Sequence record: OY726582
Direction: 5' to 3' (one strand)
Length of the DNA stretch: 64,000 nt
From: Escherichia phage vB_Eco_NicPhage
Shown here: in pieces, positions 1,057 through 20,200 of the stretch
How positions within the stretch are numbered: the stretch's first letter is position 1
Layout of the letters: the number at the start of each line of letters is the position of its first letter
Notes under the pieces: generated by a model
What the model saw: the letters and a program-made list of their open reading frames with translations, nothing else
Told to the model about the DNA's origin: nothing
Database searches by the model: none
Translations under genes and position numbers: made by a program

Positions 1057-2046
1057 TTATTTATAGTAAGAATTATGATTTTCGAGATAGACTTGCTCAA
1101 GGAAATCATCCCAGAAACTCATATCTACTTTTTGTTGCATACCGTTCTTAGCGGCTTGTTCTGATGCTTGTTCTACCTGGTCAACAATGTCTTCCAGGAA
1201 TTCTTGTACAGTTTTAAACGTATGTTTACCAAGCTTAACATCGAGAATAAATGGAGCATCCTGAAGTGGGTAAACCAGGTCGCCGGTTTTGTAAATTTCC
1301 AATAATTGAAGTCCACCACGACATGCATGACTCAATGCTTTCCAGTCAATACCTTCGTTAGCTTCTGCCTTACGAGCACGTTCACCATAGTTCTCTTCCA
1401 GTTTAACCAGGATGGCATTGAACTCTTTATTGGTTAACGTATCTTGGAATTTACGGTCTAACAGATTATAGAATGTTTGCTTACCTGTTTTCTCGTTTTC
1501 GGTTTCAACCCACGAAGCAAATTCACCTACAGGCAGAACATTCTTCATATGTGATAAACGAATTACTGCACCATTATCAAAGTATTGTCCCCATTCATTA
1601 GAACGTTTAAGGGCTTGACGAAGAACAGCCAGTCGAGAACCCTTGACACCGTATTTAGAAGCTTGCTTACGGACATACCCTAAATAAGATTTCATGTTAG
1701 TGGTATAGAAACGAGACCTGTTATCTTGAATATACTTCCATACATCAGGCAAATCAGATTTAACTACTAGACTTTGTGGAGTGTGAAGCATATCTAATGC
1801 GACGGTTTCACCATCCGCAGCTAGTTTAAAGAAATATTTGAGACTATACAACTCATGGTCCACGTCGTCTTTTGTGTTCTTAGAAGATGTGTTATTCGTG
1901 TTCTTGCTCATGTGTTCTTTAACGTTACCGGTCAAGATATCACGAGCATGAGGGACATAAATTTCTTTAAAATCGACGTCAGATTCAGGAGTAGACGTTC
2001 CATAAAGGTGGCTACCAAAGTAGCCTTTCATAATTGTTTTCATCAT
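1057..2046 (-). CDS. nucleotidyltransferase-fold protein (Pol-beta-like GS...D.D motif)
   Basis: 329 aa ORF; motif GSHLYGTSTPESDVDF near N-terminus; start overlaps upstream stop (ATGA). Confidence 0.55.
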   Translation of the reverse strand: MMKTIMKGYFGSHLYGTSTPESDVDFKEIYVPHARDILTGNVKEHMSKNTNNTSSKNTKDDVDHELYSLKYFFKLAADGETVALDMLHTPQSLVVKSDLPDVWKYIQDNRSRFYTTNMKSYLGYVRKQASKYGVKGSRLAVLRQALKRSNEWGQYFDNGAVIRLSHMKNVLPVGEFASWVETENEKTGKQTFYNLLDRKFQDTLTNKEFNAILVKLEENYGERARKAEANEGIDWKALSHACRGGLQLLEIYKTGDLVYPLQDAPFILDVKLGKHTFKTVQEFLEDIVDQVEQASEQAAKNGMQQKVDMSFWDDFLEQVYLENHNSYYK

Positions 2047-4217: not shown

Positions 4218-4430
4218 TTAATTTTGGCCAGTATTTATTTTTCGCCTTTGGACGGCCTTAACATCTGCGAGGTATTTTTCCAGCTTGCGCTTGCGTGTAT
4301 AATCAGCTTTAGAACCAGTTTGACGGATATCCTCGTTTAAATGAGAAATAGAATGTCCTAATTCTCTTCGGATTTCATCCAATTGGGTTACAGTAAGATT
4401 ACGAAGTTGTCTTTCGTTTAATTGCTGCAT
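4218..4430 (-). CDS. hypothetical protein (rI.1 position)
   Basis: 70 aa ORF between tk and rI; SD AAGAGGTA. Confidence 0.5.
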
Positions 4431-4457: not shown

Positions 4458-5039
4458 TTATAACAACCCTGTCAAATCGTTCCAATGCTTCCGGCATAAT
4501 GACACATATCTATCGGTATCACCAATTTCAATTTGACTGCCATCTGTAATTGGAAGTCCGTCTTCCGTGACTCTAGCTACCATTGTGGCCTTTTTACCAC
4601 AATGACAGACACCTTTAAGTTCAACAAGCTTATCGGCAATAGCCATTAATGCTTGAGAACCTTCAAATAGATTACCTTTAAAATCTGTTCGTAGTCCATA
4701 TGCCATTACCGGCACATTGTATACGTCAACAATACGACTAAGTTGATACACCTTTTCAGTAGTTAAGAACTGAGCTTCGTCAACAAATACGCAGTGAATA
4801 TCCTTTTGTGCTGCAGCCCATTTATAGAATTCAAAGATATCCATGTCTTTTGTAATTATATTGGCGTCCTGACGAATACCAATACGAGAGACTATTTCAC
4901 CTTTTGAATCGCGAGTATCAATAGCCGGTTTAAGAACTAATACACCCATGCCACGTTCTTTATAGTTATGTGCGGCAGTAAGTAATGAAGCAGACTTACC
5001 AGCGTTCATAGCGGCATAGGTAAAAATTAAACTAGCCAT
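4458..5039 (-). CDS. tk: thymidine kinase
   Basis: 193 aa; P-loop AAMNAGKS; C-terminal CHCG zinc motif; near-identity to T4 Tk over N-terminus as recalled. Confidence 0.9.
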   Translation of the reverse strand: MASLIFTYAAMNAGKSASLLTAAHNYKERGMGVLVLKPAIDTRDSKGEIVSRIGIRQDANIITKDMDIFEFYKWAAAQKDIHCVFVDEAQFLTTEKVYQLSRIVDVYNVPVMAYGLRTDFKGNLFEGSQALMAIADKLVELKGVCHCGKKATMVARVTEDGLPITDGSQIEIGDTDRYVSLCRKHWNDLTGLL

Positions 5040-5231: not shown

Positions 5232-5440
5232 TTAGGTTCACCTTCTTTAACGAAATCTGGGTAAGGGTAAAATCCTGAGTAAAACCCTTCACCTTTATGA
5301 TTGCTACAACCTTTGTTCGAACAGTAACACCAATAATCAAAATCACAAGCCATTTCGTCATTGCATAAAGCAAAAACTACAGGCCATTCGCATTTTTCGC
5401 ATTTAGCACCTGTAAGAATTTTTGTTTGACTCATAGCCAT
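5228..5440 (-). CDS. Cys-rich (zinc-binding?) small protein
   Basis: Track ORF 5228..5455 starts at TTG; ATG at 5440 (MAMSQ) has SD AAAGGTGA; multiple CxxC pairs. Confidence 0.45.
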   Translation of the reverse strand: MAMSQTKILTGAKCEKCEWPVVFALCNDEMACDFDYWCYCSNKGCSNHKGEGFYSGFYPYPDFVKEGEPK

Positions 5441-5643
5441 GTCACCTTTAAGCAATATTCTTCTACATGTTGTTTACGGCCTTTCTTATCAATAAAGGTA
5501 TATTCAACGAATGTTCCGATGTAGTCTTTATCTACATCATGTGGACTATTAATTGGACATTTAGTACGACAAATGCGTTCCCATTGACGAATAATTACTG
5601 CCTTATTCTTTGGATCGTATGGATGTGGATAATGTATATTCAT
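5431..5643 (-). CDS. hypothetical protein
   Basis: Track ORF 5431..5658 starts at TTG; internal ATG (MNIHYP) overlaps stop of upstream gene. Confidence 0.4.
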   Translation of the reverse strand: MNIHYPHPYDPKNKAVIIRQWERICRTKCPINSPHDVDKDYIGTFVEYTFIDKKGRKQHVEEYCLKVTWL

Positions 5644-6137
5644 AATAACGGTTCCCAATCAACAATCACAATTTCTAGTTTAGTAGAATACGTATCTAAA
5701 ATCTCTTCGATGACATCCCAGTTTCCACCACCAATACCTGCACCAATTCTTGGCATATAAATTACAGGCTTTATTATCTTATTCTTTCCGAATTCATTTA
5801 ATTCTATTATACAATTCATTAAAGCAGAGTACTCAAAATTAGGTCCCGGCTCAAACTGTGTATAAAGATTAAAGCAATAAGCTTTATGGGTCTTAAAATA
5901 TTTTTCATAAACCGAATAAGTCCCGAGTTTAGACTTGTCTCCGAATTCGGTTTGAAGTTTATCGGCTTCTAAAATTTTTGGATAAGCCTTTGCTAATTGG
6001 CCTGCTACACCGGCGCCCATTGTATGAAAACAATTACACCCATGAGCAATATTATTACCTTTAGAAAACAGGGCGACAATATCGCCCTTGATATAGTTTT
6101 TAATCACTTGCTGCAAGTCCTCTATTATAAGAGTCAA
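5640..6137 (-). CDS. macro-domain protein (ADP-ribose binding/processing fold)
   Basis: 165 aa; motifs NIAHGCNCFHTMGAGVAGQ and IGAGIGGGNW resemble macrodomain Gly-rich loops; apparent TTG start after in-frame TAG with GGTGGA SD. Confidence 0.6.
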   Translation of the reverse strand: MTLIIEDLQQVIKNYIKGDIVALFSKGNNIAHGCNCFHTMGAGVAGQLAKAYPKILEADKLQTEFGDKSKLGTYSVYEKYFKTHKAYCFNLYTQFEPGPNFEYSALMNCIIELNEFGKNKIIKPVIYMPRIGAGIGGGNWDVIEEILDTYSTKLEIVIVDWEPLL

Positions 6138-6447
6138 CTAGACGGTCCACCATAGAGTTGCATGCTGCCTTATCTTTAGGTTCCGCCACCGAGCATTCTA
6201 ATATTTGCCATTTTTTATAGTATCTTTTAATTAAGGTAGACGCCTTGAACCTACTAGACGCCCCATCTTTTTCTCCGTCTTTATACGCGTATAACAATTT
6301 TTGTGAAAAATCTACTTTACACTCTTGACTTTTACCACAATAATCAGACGCCGTTCTGTTTGTATACTCCGTTACATCAGTATATGTAGTATTAGCAAGA
6401 GCGTTAAATGAAACCAAGCTAACTATTAAAGCCAACATTTTGGTCAT
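6100..6447 (-). CDS. vs: secreted protein, Vs-like (position of T4 vs)
   Basis: 115 aa; signal peptide MTKMLALIVSLVSFNALA; synteny between tk block and regB. Confidence 0.45.
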   Translation of the reverse strand: MTKMLALIVSLVSFNALANTTYTDVTEYTNRTASDYCGKSQECKVDFSQKLLYAYKDGEKDGASSRFKASTLIKRYYKKWQILECSVAEPKDKAACNSMVDRLVDSYNRGLAASD

Positions 6448-6986
6448 TCTTTTATTTCCAGTAGTTTATTTGATTTAAGGTAATTAGCCTTTTCTAGGAC
6501 TTCAGAAGCATATTTACTTCCGGCACTTGTCTTCCATCCCGCATTATATGAGGATATAGCTTTTCTTATATCCCCGTTATGTATATTTAACCAATAAGAA
6601 AATTCGATATAAGCCCATCTGGCTGAATTAGACCGCTTAGATAGCATTTTCTTAATTTGGGCATCAGTCATATTATAACCAAGCTGGTTAATTCTTGCCC
6701 TCATTGTCGGTAGATAATTTTGGAACATTCCATACGCATGGTGACCTTTCTTATCTTTAAGATTAATACCGGCAGATGATTCCTGCCATAGTATTGCGGC
6801 CATTATGTATCCAAGTCCTTTCTTATGCATATTTTCATGCGTTTTAAATTTTCCATCCTTAGAAAACTGTTCCCCAAACTGATAAGCATAATTCAAGTTA
6901 TCGAGTTGGACATTACTAAAAGTATGCTCGGAGCTATGTGCTGATAATGAAAGAGCAAATAGACCAGCGAGTAGTGCTTTTCTCAT
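6444..6986 (-). CDS. secreted lytic transglycosylase (SLT-domain) protein
   Basis: 180 aa; signal peptide; SLT motifs AAILWQESS, GMFQ, SSYNAGW; SD GAGGTAAA. Confidence 0.65.
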   Translation of the reverse strand: MRKALLAGLFALSLSAHSSEHTFSNVQLDNLNYAYQFGEQFSKDGKFKTHENMHKKGLGYIMAAILWQESSAGINLKDKKGHHAYGMFQNYLPTMRARINQLGYNMTDAQIKKMLSKRSNSARWAYIEFSYWLNIHNGDIRKAISSYNAGWKTSAGSKYASEVLEKANYLKSNKLLEIKE

Positions 6987-6994
6987 GTTTACCT

Positions 6995-7453
6995 CTAGAT
7001 TTTAATCACTGCTTTAGAAGCTTTTCCTGGTAGTCGTTTACTGTTAATAATAGCCATTCTACATTGAAGAGTCTTCATTTTGAATGCCGGATTTTCGCGA
7101 CAAACTGTAAGTCCTAACCAAAGATTTCCGTCAGTTATTTCTAAACGGCCTGGGCGATATTCGACACCTTCGACAAAATCTTCATCAACATCTGGACGTG
7201 CCGGCATTGATAAAAATTCTGCAACTTCTTTAACATGATTTTTTACTTTATGAAATAATTCAAAAACGTAATTCTCATCTATTTCTCTCTGGATGGCACG
7301 ATCTAAGAGATGTTGAGAATACTTGATATGAAAGCCTGGTAGTCCAAGAGACTTTGCAGCATCTTTTATACTGGCATTTATTTTGCGGAACTCCGTTTCA
7401 AAGATTCGACGGAGTTTATTACGGCGGATAAAAACGTCTGAATTGATAGTCAT
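6995..7453 (-). CDS. regB: RegB site-specific endoribonuclease
   Basis: 152 aa; high similarity to T4 RegB as recalled (MTIN..VFIRRNKLRR.FE.EFR...YSQHLLDRAIQREIDE); SD GAGGAGAA. Confidence 0.85.
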   Translation of the reverse strand: MTINSDVFIRRNKLRRIFETEFRKINASIKDAAKSLGLPGFHIKYSQHLLDRAIQREIDENYVFELFHKVKNHVKEVAEFLSMPARPDVDEDFVEGVEYRPGRLEITDGNLWLGLTVCRENPAFKMKTLQCRMAIINSKRLPGKASKAVIKI

Positions 7454-7459
7454 TTTGAT

Positions 7460-7510
7460 TTCTCCTCTAGTTGACAGGTCTATAGTAACACAACTAGAGG
7501 AGAAGTAAAC
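7460..7510 (-). promoter_or_regulatory. regB early promoter with anti-SD/SD inverted repeat
   Basis: GTTTAC-TTCTCCTCTAG-(23 bp containing TACTATAGAC)-CTAGAGGAGAA-ATCAAAATG; perfect 11-bp inverted repeat. Confidence 0.6.
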
Positions 7511-7514
7511 TACT

Positions 7515-7730
7515 TTATTGATAAAATGGAGTTAAAGCCCAAGATTCTTTAGATACCATATTGGCGAAATGCCTCATCTCTTCGATTTGGCGACGACGCT
7601 GGTCAGCATAGTCTTCTTCGCCTTCTTCCTTACAATCTTCAAGGTCTTCTTCAAGATACTTTAAGTATTCACTACAAATTTTGTTGACCTTTTCTTGAAA
7701 GTCCAATAACCCAGTAATAGTAGAAGCCAT
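7515..7730 (-). CDS. hypothetical acidic protein
   Basis: 71 aa ORF, start overlaps upstream stop. Confidence 0.45.
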   Translation of the reverse strand: MASTITGLLDFQEKVNKICSEYLKYLEEDLEDCKEEGEEDYADQRRRQIEEMRHFANMVSKESWALTPFYQ

Positions 7731-7996
7731 TAGTATTTTTCCTCAGGTCGAAATACTGCACGACACGCCCACATGCTGGCTTCTTTTAGATGTTGCTTAG
7801 CGTACTTAAGAGCCTGCACTGCATCCATATCTTCTTTGGTTTGTTGCTCTGTTTCATTTTCTTTCAAGATATATGCTTCTTCAATCAGAGCATCAAACAA
7901 CAATCCAAGACGGACTTCTGCATCTTTAATAGCGTTCACTTTACCGATTTTATCATCGGTATGCGGCTTGTAGCCTTTGATGTCTTCAATCGACAT
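7730..7996 (-). CDS. hypothetical protein
   Basis: Track ORF 7730..8164; internal ATG (MSIEDIKGY) with SD GAGGAAA chosen. Confidence 0.45.
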   Translation of the reverse strand: MSIEDIKGYKPHTDDKIGKVNAIKDAEVRLGLLFDALIEEAYILKENETEQQTKEDMDAVQALKYAKQHLKEASMWACRAVFRPEEKY

Positions 7997-8210
7997 AAGG
8001 AATTTCCTCATCGGTGGCAAGGTCATATTCGACCAATTGGATAGGCTCATTAATACCATATCCACGTACAGTGATATCAGTTGTCGGATAGTTTCCAGTA
8101 ATATCACCCATTCTAAATGATTCAATGAATGATTGCTCGCCTGAGCAACTAAACCAGGCGGCAAAACATTTTAAAACATCTTCAGACCCTTCTATAATCA
8201 ATTTAGCCAT
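7986..8210 (-). CDS. hypothetical protein
   Basis: 74 aa; ATG overlaps stop of GrcA-like gene (TAATG coupling). Confidence 0.45.
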   Translation of the reverse strand: MAKLIIEGSEDVLKCFAAWFSCSGEQSFIESFRMGDITGNYPTTDITVRGYGINEPIQLVEYDLATDEEIPYVD

Positions 8211-8572
8211 TATAGACTCTCAGTAAAGGTACGAGCGATAACGTCGCGCTGCTGTTCTGGAGTCAGAGAGTTAAAGCGAACTGCATAACCGGATACACGG
8301 ATGGTCAGCTGCGGATATTTTTCTGGATGCTTAACTGCATCTTCTAGAGTTTCACGACGCAGAACGTTAACGTTCAGATGTTGACCACCTTCAATTTTAA
8401 CTTTAGGGTGATGTTCAATTTCAATTTCACGGGCATGCAAACCGTAGAAAATTTCCGGGTCTACAATAGCGTCTTCTTTAAAAGTCTTAGAGACAATAAT
8501 CCGGGCTTGAGTACCGTCTTCAAAATAAATAGTGCCTTTGTGTGTGCCTTCAAGAATTTGATATGCTTTCAT
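8210..8572 (-). CDS. grcA: autonomous glycyl radical cofactor (GrcA/YfiD-like)
   Basis: 120 aa; C-terminus ...[59 protein letters not shown] carries the glycyl-radical RVSGY motif and matches E. coli GrcA as recalled. Confidence 0.85.
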
Positions 8573-8578
8573 ATAACC

Positions 8579-8887
8579 TCAATTAGAAAATAAATTTATC
8601 CAAGTTTTTTCTTTAATCAAAAATGGGTCGGAATTAAACGCCATTAAACTTTGAGTGATTAATCCCTTAAATGGCCCATCAATAAATTCCATTTTGAAAT
8701 GTGGAATACTAGTCATCAGTCGTGCATTAGGAGCAGTACAAAGAACCTGCTGACCTGCGAACGGACCTTTAGTCAAACGATATCGTTTAGGTTTAAAATG
8801 GTAAATCTCATAATTTTCTACAAGAGCCCTTTTATTGCATACCGGGCTATTATAACAATATTCAAAAACTTCAATAGTGGTCATCAT
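8579..8887 (-). CDS. hypothetical protein
   Basis: Track ORF 8579..8950; internal ATG (MMTTIEV) overlaps upstream stop, SD GGAATG. Confidence 0.45.
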   Translation of the reverse strand: MMTTIEVFEYCYNSPVCNKRALVENYEIYHFKPKRYRLTKGPFAGQQVLCTAPNARLMTSIPHFKMEFIDGPFKGLITQSLMAFNSDPFLIKEKTWINLFSN

Positions 8888-9423
8888 TGCATTCCAATCA
8901 CAAAAAATTGAGGACGAGCAATACCGCCGTTGCAATATTTGCTTTTGCAACAGTGTTGGACTGTTTTAATATGTACATTGTAAATCTTATCCATATCAGG
9001 AGCTTTAATAGGCTCGTCAATTATATACAGAATACGAGAAAGCGTTAATCCACGGAATTTAGAACCTTCATTGCCAATAAAACTACGAACAGAATCAGTA
9101 AATAAACGGAATCGAATATCGTCGCTAGAATAACGAGAAAATTCTTTTTCAATGTTGCCAGCAGAAATTTTAGCATAAGCTGAAGTATTAGAAAGAACAA
9201 TAACCGTTCCACCATCATACAGCCAATTAGCAGCAAAGTTAGTCACAGCAATTGATTTACCTGATTGTCGGCCGCCGTCTAAACGAAGTGTACAGTACTG
9301 CTTGAGTACGTCTTCAAATGGTGGGACATAACCGTTCTTACAAATTTCTTCTACTCTAGCATCAGAATGGTGTGTAAAAGCATTCATCAGGGATAGATAA
9401 GGTCCAGTTAAAAATGTTCTCAT
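8884..9423 (-). CDS. P-loop protein (Walker A GRQSGKS)
   Basis: Track ORF 8884..9459; ATG at 9423 (MRTFLTGPY) chosen; contains LDGGRQSGKSIAV. Confidence 0.45.
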   Translation of the reverse strand: MRTFLTGPYLSLMNAFTHHSDARVEEICKNGYVPPFEDVLKQYCTLRLDGGRQSGKSIAVTNFAANWLYDGGTVIVLSNTSAYAKISAGNIEKEFSRYSSDDIRFRLFTDSVRSFIGNEGSKFRGLTLSRILYIIDEPIKAPDMDKIYNVHIKTVQHCCKSKYCNGGIARPQFFVIGMQ

Positions 9424-20043: not shown

Positions 20044-20120
<77 letters not shown>

Positions 20121-20123
20121 GAT

Positions 20124-20200
20124 TGGTGACCCAGACCAGATTCGAACTGGTAACCTTTCCCTTATGAGGGGACTGCTGCTAACCGTTGAGCTACAGGGCC
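20124..20200 (-). tRNA. tRNA with CAU anticodon (Ile2-type or Met)
   Basis: 77-nt cloverleaf: GGCCCTG acceptor, anticodon loop CUCAUAA, T-arm ACCAG-TTCGAAT-CTGGT, encoded CCA; 5' half resembles E. coli ileX as recalled. Confidence 0.75.

Follow-up and report, generated by a model that had tools for sequence, protein, structure and literature searches.

The macrodomain gene that lies between tk.3 and vs in Escherichia phage vB_Eco_NicPhage is the Mosigvirus orthologue of T4 tk.4 (adfM). The gene was analyzed within a 64,000-nucleotide stretch of the phage DNA (sequence record OY726582), referred to here as the window. Most likely, this T4 AdfM orthologue is made as a stand-alone macrodomain from the tk-vs transcription unit and erases DarT2 thymidine ADP-ribosylation through a Lys-independent mechanism similar to that of the Streptomyces coelicolor macrodomain SCO6735. 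Because the role of the T4 gene has already been published, the anti-DarT finding is not new; both the gene and its anti-DarT2 role were known, and what is new is a correction of the start and length of the gene together with the Gln-type active site. This active site, as predicted from the alignments described below, separates T4-type AdfM from both DarG and PhiKZ AdfM.

By its sequence, the window comes from a T4-like Mosigvirus; in megablast, Shigella phage JK36 and many similar isolates match it with 99.4% identity over 3.1 kb. The preliminary description had placed the open reading frame (ORF) in the tk-vs early block, and it indeed lies within the order tk, tk.2, tk.3, tk.4, vs, vs.1, and regB (Table 1); all genes of the tk.4 neighborhood are on the minus strand. 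Between positions 4300 and 9600, neither promoter-like sites (17, versus 19.0 expected from shuffled sequence) nor terminator-like sites (4 versus 3.5 expected) occur in excess, and therefore no promoter is claimed. GenBank product names are erratic in the JK36 block corresponding to window positions 6444..9000, where the label “endoribonuclease” is given to vs.1 and to several vs.x genes. The homologue of vs.6 (window 8210..8572) is “pyruvate formate-lyase” in GenBank versus “autonomous glycyl radical cofactor GrcA” in the T4 RefSeq record. Across the 64 kb of the window, just two tRNA genes are present, tRNA-Arg(tct) and tRNA-Met(cat), which are 3 nt apart on the minus strand (20044..20200).

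Table 1. Features of the tk.4 (adfM) region, in window coordinates
Feature	Position	Strand	Evidence or remark
tk	4458..5039	minus	Pfam TK, E = 7e-57
Three small genes between tk and tk.4: DUF7438, phage zinc-binding domain, DUF7202 (tk.3)		minus	
tk.3 homologue (DUF7202), downstream neighbor	5431..5643	minus	4-nt overlap of its ATG with the tk.4 stop
ORF, TTG-initiated, 165 codons	5640..6137	minus	ORF list; TTG directly after TAG
tk.4 (adfM) CDS, predicted; 155-aa stand-alone macrodomain, GTG start	5640..6107	minus	85% identity to T4 Tk.4
tk.4 stop codon TAA	5640-5642	minus	
Loop 2, P119-W130 (PRIGAGIGGGNW), diphosphate-binding loop	5718..5753	minus	Alignment to TARG1 GCGLDRLQW
N80-L-Y-T-Q84 motif, end of strand 75-84	5856..5870	minus	Model strand and profile alignments
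Y82	5862..5864	minus	Invariant, 261/261
D49	5961..5963	minus	Invariant, 261/261
Loop 1, H22-G36 (HGCNCFHTMGAGVAG)	6000..6044	minus	Contains H22 and N25
Terminator-like hairpin AGGGCGATATTGTCGCCCT, followed by GUUUUCU; U-run to ~6062	6070..6088	minus	Codons 7-13
vs (valyl-tRNA synthetase modifier), upstream neighbor	6100..6447	minus	JK36, RB32, and T4 annotation
tk.4 GTG start, inside GTGATTAA	6105..6107	minus	Coincides with the ATG of tk.4 in seven other phages
Shine-Dalgarno-like GAGGA, 10 nt upstream of the GTG	6118..6122	minus	Within the false 10-codon extension; sequence reading
TAG-TTG, ORF-calling artefact	6135..6140	minus	
vs.1	6444..6986	minus	
regB	6995..7453	minus	Pfam REGB_T4, E = 2e-69

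The minus-strand ORF of 165 codons from TTG is present as described, and both motifs quoted for it, HGCNCFHTMGAGVAGQ and IGAGIGGGNW, are found in its translation. The length of 165 aa and the TTG start had to be abandoned, and the position of the TTG after an in-frame TAG, which had been considered unusual, is an artefact of the mechanical definition of an ORF. In tblastn searches, alignments with homologues from other phages begin only at residue 10 or 11 of the 165-aa ORF. The near-identical gene of JK36 is annotated in GenBank as a 468-nt CDS for 155 aa, and tk.4 is also 468 nt long in T4 and RB32. When the DNA sequences are aligned, the ATG of T4 and RB32 tk.4 falls exactly on the GTG of the window, and the tk.4 genes of phages KMB42, Moon, Melville, F48, and Cronus likewise have ATG at this position, with proteins that start M-I-x-x-Y. 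Furthermore, T4 has an in-frame TAG immediately before the tk.4 ATG, which rules out conservation of the 10-residue extension. On the basis of the homologue alignments, the JK36 annotation, the aligned ATG codons, and the T4 stop codon, we assign the gene to 5640..6107 on the minus strand, with a predicted GTG start and a product of 155 aa, expected to begin M-I-K-N-Y-I-K. Two other candidate starts were rejected: TTG 6135-6137, which is not accompanied by homologous residues, and an inner TTG (6114-6116), which lies 1 nt after the GAGGA. In T4 and RB32, GAGGA is found 11 nt before the tk.4 ATG. The vs stop codon (TAA, 6100-6102) is also contained in GTGATTAA, and the resulting 8-nt overlap of vs and tk.4 suggests that tk.4 is probably translationally coupled to vs.

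A GC-rich, 8-bp hairpin is located 20 nt past the start of tk.4. T4, RB32, and KMB42 carry it with no base changed; it is absent from Moon, Melville, F48, and Cronus and annotated as “terminator” in phage NBG1 (MH243438). In the minimum-energy fold of positions 6050-6125, the Shine-Dalgarno region also pairs with the U-run (z = -2.8). The hairpin could be a terminator or an RNA-stabilizing end for vs that attenuates adfM, or it could enforce the translational coupling. The macrodomain CDS of NBG1 (1241..1699) is shortened to 127 aa from the internal Met30 and thereby loses the H22-G-C-N25-C motif; this 127-aa CDS is probably a mis-annotation.

The assignment of the protein to the macrodomains, proposed in the preliminary description from its Gly-rich loops, was borne out by Pfam, by profile searches of the PDB, and by an AlphaFold2 model compared with known structures using Foldseek. 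The Pfam Macro profile (PF01661) is matched with 28.4 bits (gathering threshold, 22; E = 1.7e-6) over positions 2-117 of 118, and PHROG 335 is matched with an E value of 2.7e-66. A PDB search with the single sequence recovered BT1257, Poa1p, SCO6735, DarG, and TARG1. With the family profile, the scores were 70 bits for BT1257, 64 for TARG1, 58.9 for SCO6735 (the structure of which, 5E3B, ranks 8th), 55 for MtbDarG, and 53 for Poa1p. The AlphaFold2 model, for which an alignment of 84 family sequences was the input, has a mean pLDDT of 95.9 and a pTM of 0.91, and it displays the three-layer α/β/α macro fold as predicted structure. In the Foldseek comparison with the PDB, TARG1 was matched with E = 2.9e-10, and TM scores were 0.80 for Poa1p, 0.77 for BT1257, and 0.75 for DarG; SCO6735 was also matched. 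BT1257 and Poa1p are among the best matches in both fold and sequence. The protein belongs to the TARG1/DarG/SCO6735 class, named “ALC1-like” in the SCO6735 paper (PMC9411070), and not to the MacroD or viral-macrodomain classes. The ADP-ribose-binding Asn and both Gly-rich loops are present (N25, G31-x-G33, and G122-x-G124-x-x-G127-G128). Net charge or pI as a proxy for DNA binding was uninformative and was dropped: the window protein has a pI of 6.3, and PhiKZ AdfM, which is biochemically proven, is itself at 5.05.

The window protein is identical to T4 Tk.4 (NP_049723) at 132 of 155 positions (85%) over the full length and without gaps (E = 2e-105), and none of the 23 substitutions falls at an invariant position. 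Both genes share the tk.3 and vs neighbors and the gene order, all family-invariant residues, and the 5′ hairpin, while they differ in the start codon (ATG in T4, GTG in the window) and in the overlap with vs (4 nt in T4, 8 nt in the window). The HIDEN-SEQ preprint, dated 20 Nov 2025, reported that a genome-wide transposon library of T4 on a DarTG2 host gave tk.4 as the single significant hit, that a clean tk.4 deletion makes T4 sensitive to DarTG2, and that the gene was renamed adfM; removal of ADP-ribose from DNA by T4 AdfM was the authors’ proposal, made without an assay (bioRxiv 10.1101/2025.11.20.689424). This result fits earlier work in which loss of the NADAR eraser AdfN (gp30.3, specific for DarT1 guanine marks) left T4 and T2 still resistant to DarTG2. 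A role in countering DarT-type ADP-ribosylation, as suggested in the preliminary description, has therefore been reported for an orthologue with 85% identity and the same gene order, and the T4 phenotype would be expected to extend to the phage studied here. Neither the sequence nor the literature searched offered support for the other role suggested there, against Thoeris or NAD-derived signaling.

Residue conservation was assessed in 261 family members, comprising 120 listed matches from a clustered database and 141 representatives from an exhaustive HMMER search whose pairwise identity does not exceed 50%. All 261 proteins have Q84, D49, and Y82; N25, C26, G33, and N80 occur in 260, G122 and G124 in 259, and H22 in 253. 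N25 is equivalent to DarG N22, SCO6735 N27, and PhiKZ AdfM N23, and H22 is equivalent to SCO6735 H24 and Poa1p H23; the roles of residues equivalent to N25 and H22 have been described for DarG (PMC5179494), SCO6735 (PMC9411070), and PhiKZ AdfM (PMC13309987). Q84 is the last residue of the strand 75-84 in the AlphaFold2 model, and in the family-profile alignments it falls on TARG1 K84, on the corresponding lysine of both DarG macrodomains (DarG K80, in the FPTK motif), and on the PhiKZ gp104 lysine. In place of the Lys84-Asp125 catalytic dyad of TARG1 (OARD1), Tk.4 has Q84 and, according to the profile alignments, G126; similarly, the catalytic lysine of DarG (TaqDarG K80) is replaced by Gln84. 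A small MAFFT alignment of the window protein, DarG, TARG1, gp104, and BT1257 shifted the catalytic strand by 2 residues, so that Y82 fell on K80; it was rejected in favor of the profile alignments, which agree with the predicted strand end. At the positions of the invariant D49 and Y82, DarG has Tyr and Pro, and these two residues could be the clade’s own catalytic or substrate-selecting residues.

A Gln at this position has a precedent in SCO6735, where Gln85 was described as being “in an equivalent position” to DarG K80 and TARG1 K84 (PMC9411070). DarG relies on K80 (PMC5179494), and TARG1 relies on K84 with D125. In SCO6735, the Q85A or Q85E mutation abolishes activity and N27S nearly abolishes it; the enzyme cleaves the thymidine-linked ADP-ribose made on DNA by DarT and protects Streptomyces from DarT, and a water-mediated, lysine-independent mechanism was proposed by its authors (PMC9411070). 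Like Tk.4, SCO6735 (PDB 5E3B) stands alone as an ALC1-class macrodomain, without a DarT gene beside it, and has Gln for Lys along with the His, Asn, and GxG features. The candidate SCO6735-type features of Tk.4 comprise Q84, N25, H22, G122, and G124, the equivalence of Q84 and Q85 being an indirect one, by way of TARG1 and DarG and the SCO6735 paper; with a query limited to the C-terminal part of the protein, the alignment to SCO6735 covered the Gly loop alone. However, SCO6735 is bacterial and distant, with 22% identity in Foldseek, and the equivalents of D49 and Y82, which are invariant in the Tk.4 family, are not among the residues studied there. Bacteroides BT1257 (PDB 2FG1 and 2AFC) also shares the H, N, and Q residues, with Gln at the Q84 position, and a PRIGxGxAGGxW loop.

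The macrodomain of the DarG antitoxin (PDB 5M31, 5M3I, and 7OMU) is of the catalytic-Lys type, in contrast to the Gln of Tk.4. DarG also carries a DarT-binding domain at its C terminus and is encoded next to darT, whereas Tk.4 is a macrodomain of 155 aa only, with vs and tk.3 as neighbors. Against the NCBIfam DarG equivalog model NF048014, the window protein scored 32.7 bits, with a cutoff of 250, and matched model positions 4-146 of 338. A phage protein that was independently named AdfM, PhiKZ gp104, clears a TNTC oligonucleotide of the ADP-ribose attached by DarT2 in vitro and rescues DarT2 toxicity (Cell Rep 2026; PMC13309987). Both it and Tk.4 are phage-encoded stand-alone macrodomains countering DarTG2, but gp104 is of the DarG-like lysine type (FPTKDNW; E = 9e-25 to MtbDarG) and is imported into the phage nucleus, and its BLASTP match to the window protein covers only 23 residues (E = 6e-4). 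PhiKZ AdfM and T4-type AdfM thus represent different macrodomain lineages. We consider it quite possible, if tentatively, that two or more separate recruitments gave phages their anti-DarT2 macrodomains, PhiKZ AdfM being DarG-derived and Lys-using and the Tk.4 clade being Lys-less, with Gln84, D49, and Y82 and a water mechanism like that of SCO6735.

In the mechanism that we propose, the host DarT2 toxin would ADP-ribosylate thymidines in single-stranded phage DNA, and the Tk.4 protein would bind the ADP-ribose via its two Gly-rich loops and N25 and then hydrolyze the ribose-thymine bond, so that replication could proceed. Q84, held by N25, may position the distal ribose for attack by water, as in SCO6735. 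We infer a Lys-independent reaction because the lysine that DarG and TARG1 use for catalysis is missing from Tk.4. The Trp residue of DarG that was proposed to stack on thymine, W83, is not conserved and corresponds to P87 in the window protein. In DarG, the W83A mutation had little effect, and the isolated macrodomain is sufficient as an antitoxin (PMC5179494).

The fold alone leaves the substrate unfixed, since yeast Poa1p, an ADP-ribose-1″-phosphate phosphatase, is among the closest solved relatives (PDB 6LFQ-6LFU) and shares the H-x-C-N-C motif. A housekeeping enzyme, either a Poa1p-like phosphatase or an O-acetyl-ADP-ribose deacetylase, that clears NAD-derived metabolites instead of repairing DNA is nonetheless an unlikely identity for Tk.4. 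The RefSeq name of the T4 protein (“phosphatase; contains A1pp phosphatase motif”) and the PHROG 335 name (“phosphatase”) both point to such an enzyme but were transferred by homology only, and while H22 matches Poa1p H23, the residue mutated for PDB 6LFS, the small-molecule phosphatase Poa1p has Ser and not Gln at the Q84 position in a pairwise alignment. The sole phenotype reported for T4 tk.4 is specific to DarTG2; in addition, both activities can coexist, as TARG1 and SCO6735 take several substrates. It is very unlikely that Tk.4 neutralizes DarT2 without catalysis, by binding the toxin or masking the ADP-ribosylated product in the manner of the small inhibitors AdfA and AdfB, which were reported to block DarT activity. 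The dead Q85A variant of SCO6735 does still inhibit DarT by interaction, more than dead DarG or TARG1 (PMC9411070), but the K80A macrodomain of DarG alone did not inhibit DarT (PMC5179494), and Tk.4 lacks the C-terminal DarT-binding domain of DarG. Moreover, N25, Q84, and the GxG loops are near-invariant over the 261 relatives, most of which are at most 50% identical, which argues for selection on enzyme chemistry rather than on one toxin-binding surface.

Macrodomains are versatile, and relatives of Tk.4 are fused to NUDIX and DUF4326 domains, one fused relative having a weak ThsA_Macro Pfam match; the main target could therefore be sought among the phage’s own Alt, ModA, and ModB marks, RNA ADP-ribosylation of the CmdTAC type, or Thoeris-type cyclic ADPR, with DarT2 as a side activity. 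We regard this as highly improbable, as no supporting screen or assay was found. Alt and Mod enzymes modify arginine, and to our knowledge ALC1-class macrodomains do not cleave ADP-ribosylated arginine. CmdTAC has been described as a robust defense against T-even phages, which carry tk.4 (PMC11618068). Reversal of DarT2 thymidine ADP-ribosylation is the reading that we retain.

The Tk.4 family was detected by tblastn in 2,798 of 50,697 phage records, with carriers among Straboviridae, Felixounavirus-like, rV5-like, Vibrio, Pseudomonas, Acinetobacter, and Bacillus phages. The exhaustive HMMER search of 1.84 billion clusters yielded 18,509 representatives with E values up to 1e-3, of which 1,195 had E values up to 1e-30. 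Some family members, among them P0209 and P0234, are fused to NADAR and DUF4326 (472 aa; P0229, L010/L011 6001..7419), to DUF4326 alone, or to NUDIX, and the macrodomains of these fusions are of the Gln type. The fusion partners are consistent with ADP-ribose processing, and a Macro-NADAR fusion would combine erasers of thymine- and guanine-linked ADP-ribose. The contigs with Macro-NADAR-DUF4326 fusions are 13-17 kb long and ORFan-rich, and their context gave no further clue. In the Tequatrovirus KMB42, the flank upstream of tk.4 is 94-100% identical to that of T4, and identity is again ~100% just downstream of the gene, while between positions of about +140 and +490 in tk.4 it is only 40-74%; the KMB42 protein is ~58% identical to the window protein. 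The KMB42 tk.4 gene represents a cassette-like allele replacement in a conserved context, as expected under arms-race selection.

For the gene that lies between tk.3 and vs in the window, the labels “phosphatase” and “hypothetical protein” are best replaced by adfM (anti-DarT2 macrodomain), with 155 aa and a GTG start. If phages did recruit such macrodomains at least twice, the Gln chemistry of the Tk.4 clade could widen the range of substrates to DNA, protein Glu/Asp, RNA, and ADPr-1″-P, and the cassette-like allele swaps in T4-like phages would stem from an arms race against a variety of ADP-ribosyltransferase toxins. The widespread toxin-antitoxin defense DarTG stops phages by ADP-ribosylating their DNA, and knowing which phages carry an eraser aids the prediction of host range, for example in the choice of therapeutic T4-like phages.
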